Part shown: piece after piece, positions 60,694 to 63,627 of the stretch
How positions within the stretch are numbered: position 1 is the first letter of the stretch
Layout: each line of letters begins with the position of its first letter
Virus record (IMG/VR): IMGVR_UViG_3300037455_000099
Location: 1,383 to 65,382 of that record
Strand: one strand, 5' to 3'
Source of the DNA: a virus
Taxonomy: Duplodnaviria; Caudoviricetes
DNA: 64,000 nt
Made by a program: the position numbers and the translations under genes
Notes under the pieces: generated by a model
Database searches by the model: none
What the model saw: the letters and a program-made list of their open reading frames with translations, nothing else
Told to the model about the DNA's origin: nothing

Positions 60694-63627
60694 ATGAATC
60701 AGACTGCAGCTGAACTGGCAGAATTTTACGCAGCCGTAATGGAAGGTATGACTGAAGAAATGTACCATTACGGAGTCAAGAGACGTTCAGGACGTTATCC
60801 ATGGGGTTCTGGTAAAGATCCTTATCAGCATGGAGACAACAGAGACTTCTTAGGAAGAGTCGACGAGCTTAAGAAGAAAGGTTGGACTGAAACTGCTGAG
60901 AACGTCTACAAAGAATTTGGGGTTTCACTTAACGAATACCGATATGAGAAATCCATTTGTGTTAATGAAAGACGACAGGAGAGATATGCAAGAGCATGCT
61001 CACTCAGAGACGATGGACTTAACACATCAGAGATAGCAAGAGCAATGGGATGTAATGAATCTTCTATAAGAACATTATTTGAAAATGCTAATGCTATTAA
61101 AAACATGAATGAGATACATGATACAGCGAAGTTCTTAAAAGAACAGGTAGACAAGAAACGAATGATAGACGTAGGTAAAAACGTTGAGATCGAACTGGGA
61201 ATCAAAAGAGAACGACTCGACACGGCTATCTATTATCTTGTTGGTGAAGGGTATCATGACTATGGTGGACGAGTTCCACAGCCACTCAACCCAGGACAGA
61301 TGACAACTCAGCGTGTATTGGCCGCACCTGATGTCGAGTTCAAAGAGATTTATGACTTTGATAAAGTTAAGACTATAACAGAGTATAAATCTGATGATGG
61401 TGGCAAAACATTTAAAACGTACCAGTATCCTGAGAGCCTTGACTCTAAGCGTCTGTTAGTTAGATACGCAGACGACAGAGATCCTGATGGCTTCAAGGGT
61501 ATTGAGAAGGATGGTATTATCGAAATCAGACCAGGATGCAAAGATCTTAGTCTTGGTGACGATAATTACTGTCAGGTACGTATCCTTGTTGATGGCACAC
61601 ATTATCTAAAGGGAATGGCAGTATACTCTGATAACCTACCTGATGGTATTGATGTAGCATTCAACACAAACAAGACAAGAGACAAATGTCCTACACCAAA
61701 AGACTGTCTTAAAGATGCAGCTAAGAACTTAAAGAAAGATCCTAACAATCCATTTGGTTCTACTATTAAGCCAGCACCAGAAGGACAGTACATGTATGTT
61801 GATGACGATGGCAAAGAGAAGCTTGGACTCATCAACAAGAGAGCATCACAGGGCGACTGGTCTGAATGGAAGGATCAGTTACCAGCACAGTTCTTAGCTA
61901 AACAGACTACAAAGTTAGCAAAGAAACAGTTAGACTTAGCAAGAGCAGACAAGAAGGATGAGTTTGAAGACATTATGTCTATTACTAATCCTGCTGTAAG
62001 AAAGTATTACTTAAATAAGTTTGCTGAATCTTGTGACAAGACTGCTGTTGATCTGAGTGCTGCAGCATTACCACATCAGAAGTACCATGTTATCTTACCT
62101 ATTAATAGTTTAAAAGAGAATGAAGTATTTGCACCACAGTATGAGAACGGAACTAAAGTAGCTCTTGTTCGATACCCACATGAAGGTATATACCAGATTC
62201 CTATTTTAACTGTTAATAATAAGAATGCATTAGCAAGAAAGATTATTGGTACTGATTCATTCGATGCTGTTGGTATCAAGGCGTCCGTAGCAGAACAGCT
62301 GTCAGGTGCAGACTTCGATGGTGATACTGTTATGGTAATACCAACTCATGATGCAGAAGGTAAGGTTAAGATCAGCAATAAGGCTCCACTCGAGGGACTT
62401 GTTGGATTCGATTCTAAACAGTACCAGTATGACAGCATCAATGAGAAGGGTGAATACTGTCGCAATGGAATACCATTCAAGCCAATGTCTAAGGCTACAA
62501 CACAGAAAGAGATGGGTGTAACTGCTAACCTGATCATGGACATGACTATGGCTGGAGCTACTGATGACGAACTCGTTAGAGCAACTAAGCATAGTATGGT
62601 TGTTATCGACGCAGAGAAACACCACCTCGACTACAAGCAGTCAGAGAAGGACAACAACATAGCAGAGCTTAAGAAACTATACCAGGTACAGACCAATGCG
62701 GACGGTACTGTGGTAATAGATCCTAAGACTGGTGGTCCTAAGGTTGGTGGTGCAGCAACCCTCCTATCCCGATCCAAGAGTGACGAGAGGGTACCTAAGA
62801 GGATGGGTCAGCCTAAGGTCAACGAGAAAGGCAAAGATTGGTATGACCCTACCAAGCCAGAAGGCGCACTCATCTACAAGACGGTTCCAGAAGACAAGCT
62901 CTACTACACTAAGTATGAGAAGAAGAAAGATGGAACAGTTAAAGAGACCATCGAGATGAGGACAGATACCATTAGCAAGATGGAGAATACCGAAGATGCT
63001 AGAACACTCATCTCTGCTAAGCGTACTAAAATGGAACTTTTGTATGCTGATTATGCTAATGACATGAAACAGCTTGCTAGAAACGCTAGATTAGAGATGG
63101 TACACACCCCTAATGTAGAGGTTAACAAGGAAGCTAAGAAACAGTATGCTAATGAGGTAGCCTCCCTCAATAACAAGTTAAACGAGGCCCTTAAGAACTC
63201 TATTAAGGAGAGACAGGCGGTACGTATGAGTGCAGCAGCCTTAAAAGAAGCTATTGAAAGAGATCCTTCTTTAAAAGATGATAAAAAGAGTAAAAGAAAG
63301 ATTAGTCAGTTAGCTATAACCCAGGCTAGAGAGGAATTAGGTTCTAAAACAAGAAAAGAACGTAATATCAATCTTACTGACAAAGAATGGGAAGCTATAC
63401 AAGCAGGTGCTGTAAATAACACTTTCTTAAACAAGCTTTTAGCTAACTGTGATCCTGATGACTTACGTGCACGCGCTACACCTAAAGAAACAAAGGAAAT
63501 TAGTGCTGCTACTAAAGCTCATATCAAAGCTCTTGCAAATAGCAATTACACAGTTGCTGACATTGCTGATCGTCTTAACTTGTCAACTTCAACAATTTCA
63601 AAGTACATTAAAACGAAAGAAGCGTGA
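60694..63627 (+). CDS. single-subunit double-psi-beta-barrel RNA polymerase (YonO/RdRP-like) with two HTH motifs
   Basis: LVRYPH and LSGADFDGD (DFDGD at 62311-62325); HTH-like segments near both termini; N-terminal EMYH-YG leader. Confidence 0.85.
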   Translation: MNQTAAELAEFYAAVMEGMTEEMYHYGVKRRSGRYPWGSGKDPYQHGDNRDFLGRVDELKKKGWTETAENVYKEFGVSLNEYRYEKSICVNERRQERYARACSLRDDGLNTSEIARAMGCNESSIRTLFENANAIKNMNEIHDTAKFLKEQVDKKRMIDVGKNVEIELGIKRERLDTAIYYLVGEGYHDYGGRVPQPLNPGQMTTQRVLAAPDVEFKEIYDFDKVKTITEYKSDDGGKTFKTYQYPESLDSKRLLVRYADDRDPDGFKGIEKDGIIEIRPGCKDLSLGDDNYCQVRILVDGTHYLKGMAVYSDNLPDGIDVAFNTNKTRDKCPTPKDCLKDAAKNLKKDPNNPFGSTIKPAPEGQYMYVDDDGKEKLGLINKRASQGDWSEWKDQLPAQFLAKQTTKLAKKQLDLARADKKDEFEDIMSITNPAVRKYYLNKFAESCDKTAVDLSAAALPHQKYHVILPINSLKENEVFAPQYENGTKVALVRYPHEGIYQIPILTVNNKNALARKIIGTDSFDAVGIKASVAEQLSGADFDGDTVMVIPTHDAEGKVKISNKAPLEGLVGFDSKQYQYDSINEKGEYCRNGIPFKPMSKATTQKEMGVTANLIMDMTMAGATDDELVRATKHSMVVIDAEKHHLDYKQSEKDNNIAELKKLYQVQTNADGTVVIDPKTGGPKVGGAATLLSRSKSDERVPKRMGQPKVNEKGKDWYDPTKPEGALIYKTVPEDKLYYTKYEKKKDGTVKETIEMRTDTISKMENTEDARTLISAKRTKMELLYADYANDMKQLARNARLEMVHTPNVEVNKEAKKQYANEVASLNNKLNEALKNSIKERQAVRMSAAALKEAIERDPSLKDDKKSKRKISQLAITQAREELGSKTRKERNINLTDKEWEAIQAGAVNNTFLNKLLANCDPDDLRARATPKETKEISAATKAHIKALANSNYTVADIADRLNLSTSTISKYIKTKEA

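Follow-up and report, generated by a model that had tools for sequence, protein, structure and literature searches.

A single-chain two-barrel RNA polymerase homologue with helix-turn-helix modules, and its candidate early promoters, in an uncultured siphovirus

How does a minimal two-barrel RNA polymerase find its promoters when it works without a sigma factor or general transcription factors? This is an open question, and it is raised by a gene near the right end of the tailed-phage record IMGVR_UViG_3300037455_000099 (Duplodnaviria; Caudoviricetes), an IMG/VR virus genome of 65,382 bp that is rated complete. The window, by which we mean the whole stretch of DNA analysed here (64,000 nucleotides), corresponds to bases 1383-65382 of this record, and positions are those of the window unless the genome is named. 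The gene (its coordinates, with those of the other features, are collected in Table 1) encodes a further member of an already predicted and published family of phage RNA polymerases, and not a new kind of protein. The same genome carries 22 copies of a promoter-like motif, and we think that the enzyme itself is their probable reader.

The open reading frame (ORF) is present exactly as claimed in the original prediction, which had been made from the sequence and its translations, and so are the two motifs on which that prediction was built, RYPH (residues 493-496, bases 62170-62181) and GADFDGD (residues 538-544, bases 62305-62325). Conservation was scored on an alignment of 90 family representatives, in which R493, P495 and H496 are invariant, together with the stretch from S537 to D544 (including G538, A539, D540, D542 and G543). 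The first of these blocks thus contains the R-x-P hallmark of two-barrel polymerases, located ahead of the metal loop (R446/P448 in Rpb1 and R962/P964 in QDE-1; PMC2919709), and the second contains the metal-binding DxDGD loop (D540, D542, G543 and D544), in the strand-loop region of the second barrel. The hallmark of the beta-like barrel is one invariant aspartate and two basic residues (D837, K979 and K987 in Rpb2; D709, R738 and K743 in QDE-1; PMC2919709). In the first barrel of the phage protein, D273 is conserved in at least 90% of the sequences and Q294, R296, K306 and G307 in all of them, the equivalence to the residues of Rpb2 and QDE-1 being one of position only. Finally, a helical block following the second barrel holds ten more invariant residues (M607, G608, N612, L613, D616, M617, A630, D639, K642 and H643); we infer that residues 600-643, which fall within the range aligned to Rpb1 (see below), form a bridge-helix-like region.

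Searches with sequences alone said little about structure: phmmer with the polymerase against PDB sequences returned nothing, the family profile against the same database found generic helix-turn-helix (HTH) proteins only, and the match to the eukaryotic RNA-dependent RNA polymerase family PF05183 in Pfam (residues 530-645) is below threshold. An AlphaFold2 model based on the 90-sequence alignment has a mean predicted local distance difference test (pLDDT) of 88.2 and a predicted template modelling score of 0.83. Compared with the PDB by Foldseek, this model ranks QDE-1 first (E 1e-9), followed by P32 gp64 and P74 gp62 of Thermus phages (E ~1e-6), RDR2, P23-45 gp96 and the Rpb1/beta-prime chains. 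VIA-align superposes it on QDE-1, RDR2 and P74 gp62 with Z-scores of 13-15 over 350-395 residues; these alignments start at model residues 243-247 and extend over the range 243-810, which spans both barrels, the connector and the bridge region. The Rpb1/beta-prime chains align to residues 453-664 (Z ~10). The beta strands of the first barrel are modelled at residues 254-257, 275-278, 292-299, 303-311 and 321-324. The claim of a single-subunit two-barrel enzyme is therefore borne out by a predicted fold in which both double-psi beta-barrels (DPBB) are found.

The claim of two HTH motifs holds, and both modules are conserved in the family consensus. The segments originally quoted correspond to residues 108-128 and 948-967. 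The C-terminal module exceeds the Pfam cut-off with HTH_23 (35.4 bits, E 8.8e-9, residues 938-974), and HTH_38 and HTH_5 likewise exceed theirs. The N-terminal one is present and is borderline in Pfam (HTH_29 at 27.3 bits, Sigma70_r4_2 at 25.2 bits over residues 103-128, and HTH_28). The family consensus shows two tandem HTH-like repeats on the N-terminal side, hence three HTH-like units overall, the first of which is degenerate here (residues ~62-88, bases 60877-60957, preceding the N-terminal HTH). Taken with the modelled fold, the protein is a homologue of two-barrel RNA polymerases that combines both barrels and the HTH modules in one chain.

To which polymerases is it related? The PHROGs profile phrog_4291, labelled "RNA-dependent RNA polymerase" (as the protein is in RefSeq), aligns with it over practically the full length (E=0, 1074 bits), residues 15-975 matching profile positions 4-908 of 909, which rules out a chance resemblance. 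By tblastn, full-length homologues with 35-51% identity are present in 250 phage records, from phages of Arthrobacter, Gordonia, Streptomyces, Rhodococcus, Microbacterium, Curtobacterium, Lactococcus (the 1706 group) and Faecalibacterium (FP_oengus), and human-gut contigs are also among the matches; in the phage records the right end of the genome is almost always no more than about 0.5 kb away from the gene. An exhaustive HMMER search gave 2314 clusters (at 50% identity) with E<=1e-3, 814 of them with E<=1e-30. The nearest relatives are diverged, the best phage record being 51% and the best metagenome cluster 55% identical. This is the family of ORF75 of Lactococcus phage 1706, with which our protein shares the motifs, the HTHs at both ends, the gene order and the location, ahead of the late block, at the right end of the genome. 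Ruprich-Robert and Thuriaux (2010; PMC2919709) recognised the 1706 protein as one of five YonO-like families that carry the eight invariant residues of all two-barrel polymerases. Koert et al. (2021; bioRxiv 10.1101/842583) then described a core resembling RNA-dependent RNA polymerases, with DxDGD and with HTH domains at both ends, in the signature gene of a supercluster of actinobacteriophages that also takes in the 1706-like phages and FP_oengus ("HTH domain / putative RNA polymerase"). Later papers on the family merely repeat the database label. Nothing in the present protein is different in kind: it is a diverged member, from an uncultured, integrase-less phage that probably infects Clostridia.

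The original prediction is not supported as worded in one respect, its reference to YonO of SPbeta, to which no relationship in sequence is detectable. The profile of the 90 sequences matches YonO with a probability of 0.2% (hhalign), and the best BLASTP alignment is off-register with E 0.11; the family is a separate one, named in 2010, both HTHs of which were described in 2021. Kinship to YonO is one of fold and of logic only. Both are single-chain two-barrel polymerases of about 100 kDa from tailed phages, encoded just 5' of late genes, but for YonO neither HTH modules at the termini nor an N-terminal motif have been reported. Moreover, YonO has been shown to act on late genes, whereas the motif that travels with the present enzyme marks early ones. 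How YonO recognises its promoters was stated as open by Forrest et al. (2017). The best structural matches, QDE-1 and RDR2, share the barrels, connector and bridge region at 11-16% identity, but they are cellular enzymes which copy RNA or single-stranded DNA and have no HTH modules; furthermore, the metal loop of the phage protein has the ADFDGD form of cellular beta-prime rather than DYDGD. The Thermus phages P23-45 and P74-26 provide further minimal phage two-barrel transcriptases with private early promoter motifs (gp64/gp62 and gp96; E ~1e-6, Z 11-13). There the non-virion gp64/gp62 and the virion enzyme gp96 split the work (bioRxiv 10.1101/2022.12.01.518664). These proteins differ from ours in being either of ~600 residues or fused to the tape measure (gp96), in lacking HTH modules, and in showing no sequence homology to it.

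What, then, could the HTH modules read? All real genes of the genome are on the + strand, and the 22 promoter-like sites listed in the original prediction survive a quantitative test well. With a position weight matrix (PWM) built from the sites, all 22 score at least 23.9 bits, whereas every other position of the genome, whichever the strand, stays below 12. The site-derived pattern has 22 matches, all of them on the + strand; in 100 dinucleotide-shuffled sequences the mean number of matches was 0.01. The motif consists of a CGY box, ~8 nt, a TCA/ACA box, ~5 nt, a TATAAT-like box, an invariant G and a purine-rich stretch, the three boxes being spaced about one helical turn apart. Every copy lies in the early/replication half, and none is found in the late 36-kb block. 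Three paralogous phrog_2152 genes (39089-39949, 40185-40949 and 42590-43507) are interspersed with the copies in the early region; phrog_2152 has no assigned function, and the FP_oengus counterparts are labelled DUF6353.

The TATAAT-like box invites the idea of an ordinary bacterial promoter, but the motif has no -35 element at sigma-70 spacing, and two conserved boxes stand in the place of a spacer. The Shine-Dalgarno sequence starts 0-6 nt past the invariant G in some 12 of the 22 copies, and it would be missing from a transcript that began 6-8 nt past the hexamer, where a sigma factor would place the start. For this reason a start at the final G of the motif is indicated, and the geometry would fit promoters of the T7 type rather than those of sigma-70. 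Among the larger early ORFs of the genome we found neither a sigma factor nor a second polymerase.

The same three boxes, in the same register, are present in the early regions of FP_oengus (13 copies) and Lactococcus phage 1706 (11-12 copies), and again in Arthrobacter phage Correa (7 copies) and Streptomyces phage Scap1 (6-7 copies), where the AT-rich boxes are conspicuous against a GC-rich genome. The late blocks of these phages contain no copy. The hosts belong to two phyla and have very different GC contents, so that the conservation of the motif is hard to credit to a host sigma factor and speaks for a phage factor that is itself conserved. The last copy stands just 5' of the endonuclease-exonuclease-polymerase operon in four of the five phages (this phage, FP_oengus at 27681, Correa at 53454 and Scap1 at 38950), and in our genome no convincing terminator separates that copy (59689..59714) from the polymerase gene. 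A polymerase with its own HTH modules is the obvious candidate for the role of reader, as far as co-occurrence, which is not proof, can tell.

In line with the original prediction, we therefore consider it probable, from the sequence comparisons, that no sigma factor is involved and that the polymerase recognises the 22 three-box promoters of the early/replication half directly. The two upstream boxes, one helical turn apart, would be read by its HTH modules, and the enzyme would melt the TATAAT-like box and initiate at the conserved G right after it. Several observations weigh against this interpretation. A host primary sigma factor could use the TATAAT-like hexamer and the G as a -10 element and discriminator, and transcripts reading through from upstream would also keep the ribosome-binding sites useful. 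The phages concerned share many other genes, so that another conserved factor could read the motif, and the location of the polymerase gene downstream of a promoter of its own class is also compatible with simple early expression. Finally, the closest phage record, MT835495.1 (polymerase 51% identical), scanned with the matrix of the present phage, has only two strong copies and one weaker one (at 32642, 12.9 bits), owing either to divergence of its early promoters or to a different arrangement of the record. Both strong copies in MT835495.1 lie just 5' of its polymerase operon.

If the enzyme reads early promoters, where does the first enzyme come from? A possible answer lies in its N-terminus, which starts with an acidic run, followed by hydrophobic-x-His, by YG, and by a stretch rich in Gly, Ser, Arg and Trp. 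H25, G27, S32, G33, R34, G38, G40 and Q45 are invariant in the 90 sequences, and pLDDT is below 50 over residues 20-47. A peptide both invariant and disordered is what one would expect of a short binding or cleavage motif, and we regard it as a candidate virion-targeting signal or prohead-protease site. When a hidden Markov model (HMM) of this peptide was run against the 627 other ORFs, four of the five DUF7211-type ("HHG-leader") proteins came within the top five, all aligned on the acidic, hydrophobic-x-His, Tyr/His-Gly segment. The hydrophobic-x-His layout before the invariant YG is seen in the polymerases of five phages; in four phages the protease-capsid fusions have several hydrophobic-x-His motifs in acidic linkers, the last of them just before the conserved capsid N-terminus. 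These repeats look like maturation cleavage sites, with cleavage after His. In the present genome the fusion (14977-16743) has an acidic linker at residues ~155-275 with four hydrophobic-Ile-x-His motifs, and equivalent linker repeats occur in 1706 orf10, FP_oengus gp71 and Scap1 gp09. The proteins with a leader of this kind are five in number, all basic, with an acidic leader ending in His (genome 1003-2169; window 784-1314, 1663-2172, 2523-3305 and 34821-35663). Four of them match Pfam DUF7211, a 25-residue domain of no assigned function, the exception being the ORF at 784; four are clustered ahead of the terminase gene and one follows the tail genes.

In GenBank, "structural protein" is the label both of 1706 orf75, the polymerase homologue, and of orf7, a DUF7211-type protein encoded 5' of the terminase. 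We also count in favour of virion carriage that a search of this genome found neither an integrase nor a resolvase. The logic proposed here would be that of N4-like and crAss-like phages, whose virion polymerases enter the cell together with the DNA and act on early promoters that the host cannot read; the crAss enzyme is likewise a QDE-1-like two-barrel protein, whereas that of N4 is T7-like. These polymerases are, however, proteins of 2,000-3,500 residues encoded among structural genes, and their virion location has been experimentally shown, whereas here it is a suggestion.

There are indeed good reasons for caution. The evidence of the 1706 label is second-hand, and the label of the ReqiPoco6 homologue was given by similarity only. 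The peptide-HMM matches to the DUF7211 proteins are individually non-significant (E 0.14-0.77), and Pfam DUF7211 run against the first 89 residues of the polymerase gives no match at E<=0.1. The polymerase gene lies outside the structural block. Relatives are common in prophages, and FP_oengus has an integrase; a prophage must start without virion enzyme on induction, so that a host-driven route to the enzyme must exist. Our literature search, moreover, brought up no experiment with a protein of this family. Virion carriage, which rests on the second-hand GenBank label and the N-terminal motif, is thus plausible, with the arguments for and against it in near balance, and we would say much the same of the next step, in which the packed copies enter with the DNA and start early transcription.

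This leads to the first of the rival explanations. As in T7, the polymerase could read the 22 promoters without being carried in the virion, if host RNA polymerase made the first molecules from a weak host-type promoter, after which the enzyme would amplify itself and take over. In four of five phages the polymerase operon follows a motif copy of the class that the enzyme would read, which suits such a circuit, and the host-driven route demanded by the frequent prophage-borne relatives would be supplied by it; a gene of ordinary size outside the structural block is also more easily understood in this way, known virion polymerases being giant or fused to structural proteins. We nevertheless think this scenario rather unlikely. 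Sigma-70-like sites around the polymerase gene and at the left end are no commoner than in shuffled sequences, and neither the surroundings of the operon nor the beginning of the early region shows an obvious host promoter. It also sits uneasily with the "structural protein" label of the 1706 homologue (with the reservation made above), and leaves unexplained why an invariant, disordered N-terminal peptide should resemble putative protease sites.

The second rival concerns the late genes and requires a look at the ends of the genome. The polymerase gene ends 376 bp short of the right end of the record. At the left end come phrog_4259, an HNH endonuclease and several DUF7211 ("HHG") proteins, followed by the large terminase (window 3333). 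The original prediction placed the polymerase gene at the head of the late module, just 5' of the HHG-protein/terminase cluster, on condition that the genome is circular or permuted, and this is upheld by the positions of the ends and by FP_oengus. In the latter, whose genome is in prophage order, the polymerase gene is immediately flanked by the replication module on one side and by the HNH/terminase/portal block on the other. Where the record ends meet (window 63945-64000 and genome bases 1-120) there are G-rich and AT-rich elements and an imperfect inverted repeat across the junction. The end sequences have homologues at the ends of Scap1 and 1706 and, in FP_oengus, at an internal site (~31660-31760); on account of this homology the record probably ends at or near the true cohesive ends, and the cos region is probably located at the junction. 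Joining of the ends thus makes the polymerase gene a physical neighbour of the late block, a contiguity that FP_oengus shows directly.

It might be argued from this arrangement that the enzyme is a late polymerase in the manner of YonO, the 22 motifs being used as early promoters by host RNA polymerase (perhaps with a phage DNA-binding factor) and the phage enzyme, the last product of the early region, transcribing only the adjacent packaging, structural and lysis genes as one long operon. YonO does transcribe the late genes of SPbeta as one operon, and yonO lies just 5' of it; the polymerase gene stands directly before the late block both here and in FP_oengus; the late 36 kb contain no copy of the motif, and the motif includes a TATAAT-like hexamer. 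However, in the four end-junction regions inspected we saw no second, late-specific conserved motif at the head of the late block, just homologous cos-like sequences. A host sigma factor would not explain why the early motif lacks a -35 and why its extra boxes have been kept from Lactococcus to Streptomyces phages, and the ribosome-binding sites overlap the would-be sigma-type start. If one adds that there is no sequence relationship to YonO, this hypothesis appears improbable to us. As for the idea that the protein is not a transcriptase at all, but an RNA-dependent RNA polymerase or a primer-making or DNA-binding protein of replication or recombination co-expressed with the endonuclease and exonuclease, it draws on the RNA-copying activity of the closest solved folds (QDE-1 and RDR2), on the database label and on the operon shared with two nucleases, and we consider it very improbable, since QDE-1 also copies DNA, the Thermus-phage proteins P32 gp64 and P74 gp62 are DNA-dependent transcriptases, this double-stranded DNA phage already encodes a dedicated primase-polymerase, and sequence-specific HTH modules with a co-travelling promoter-like motif fit transcription from DNA.

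The explanation that we prefer overall, and to which we would give about an even chance as a whole, is that of a DNA-dependent single-chain two-barrel RNA polymerase of the 1706 family which reads its own promoters and is carried in the virion. Enzyme copies would be packed in the capsid, the N-terminal hydrophobic-x-His/YG peptide serving as targeting signal, as prohead-protease site or as both; the packaged enzyme would enter with the DNA and begin early transcription. The last promoter would then drive the endonuclease, exonuclease, polymerase and phrog_4303 genes, and, the cohesive ends being joined, the same transcription unit might continue into the packaging and structural genes. Run-on across the joined ends would explain why the late 36 kb have no promoter copy of their own. 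This last-promoter unit with its run-on into late genes is the weakest step, and a doubtful one; a terminator-like hairpin just inside the left end speaks against free read-through. Only tentatively, therefore, would we go on to the full picture of a self-contained, sigma-free system in a siphovirus of ordinary size, in which a 110-kDa polymerase is packaged via a short N-terminal peptide trimmed by the prohead protease, injected, and directed by its HTHs (possibly with the phrog_4303 protein) to a 25-bp three-box promoter, the joining of the ends timing the late switch.

Table 1. Window positions of the polymerase gene, its predicted domains, the genes beside it and the promoter-like motif
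Feature	Position	Strand	Basis
Single-chain two-barrel RNA polymerase homologue gene (PHROG 4291 / "1706 family")	60694..63627	+	977-residue ORF; phrog_4291 match
Invariant, disordered N-terminal motif, residues 21-47	60754..60834	+	90-sequence alignment and low pLDDT
N-terminal HTH, residues 104-128, resembles sigma region 4	61003..61077	+	Pfam; helices 111-118 and 122-130 in model
First barrel, beta/Rpb2-like "DPBB-B", residues ~250-330	61441..61683	+	Conserved D273, Q294, R296, K306, G307
Second barrel, beta-prime/Rpb1-like "DPBB-A", residues ~460-551	62071..62346	+	Holds RYPH and metal-binding GADFDGD loop
Long helices past second barrel, residues 600-643, bridge-helix-like	62491..62622	+	Helices 600-620 and 624-643
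C-terminal HTH, residues 938-974	63505..63615	+	Pfam; helices 938-949, 954-961 and 965-973
Region with all 22 motif copies (early/replication half)	35955..59714	+	PWM scan and shuffles
22nd (last) motif copy, heads endonuclease-exonuclease-polymerase operon	59689..59714	+	PWM score 37.3
Endonuclease, 138 residues, first gene of operon	59761..60177	+	phrog_93, E 9e-13; synteny with FP_oengus gp53, Scap1 gp53, Correa gp93
PD-(D/E)XK exonuclease, 187 residues, directly 5' of polymerase gene	60105..60668	+	phrog_3953, E 3.4e-64; Pfam DUF2800/PDDEXK_1
phrog_4303 small gene, 102 residues, directly 3' of polymerase gene	63636..63944	+	phrog_4303, E 1.8e-25

The neighbourhood of the gene is itself conserved. 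The order endonuclease-exonuclease-polymerase-small gene is identical in FP_oengus, Scap1 and Correa, and the pair formed by the polymerase and the small gene is also kept in 1706 and ReqiPoco6. In these five phages the phrog_4303 homologue occupies the same spot (32-54% identity, E 1e-16 to 1e-27). Two starts could be proposed for the small gene, an ATG at 63636, 9 nt past the polymerase stop, or a GTG at 63624 that overlaps the stop codon; the ATG is probably the true one, as the homologues begin at ATG. The phrog_4303 proteins of the six phages (102-106 residues, two host phyla) share a motif rich in Asp, Asn and Pro at the N-terminus. Compared with 48,161 chains, the predicted fold had no structural match (best Z 3.8). 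The product may be an accessory factor of the polymerase.

Concerning the host, polymerase genes with 40-55% identity are found in chromosomes and in contigs of metagenome-assembled genomes (MAGs), mainly of Lachnospiraceae and other Clostridia, and those in chromosomes of cultured Clostridia include Hungatella hathewayi, Eubacterium ramulus and Lachnospira hominis. A few MAG matches labelled Bacteroidales or Melainabacteria may be binning artefacts. Because these relatives are mainly in Clostridia, the host is probably a member of the gut Clostridia.

What does this potentially tell us? The family is very large, extending over phages of Actinobacteria and Firmicutes and many gut prophages, and the value of the present gene is that of one more well-resolved instance, with 22 promoter copies. 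For the question of how a minimal two-barrel polymerase finds its promoters, the family is an unusually favourable test case: its DNA-binding modules belong to the same polypeptide as the barrels, and the promoter candidate is short, conserved and easily mutated. If our interpretation is correct, this would be a compact orthogonal transcription module and, furthermore, an extant example of cellular RNA polymerase in a single-chain, ancestor-like form.

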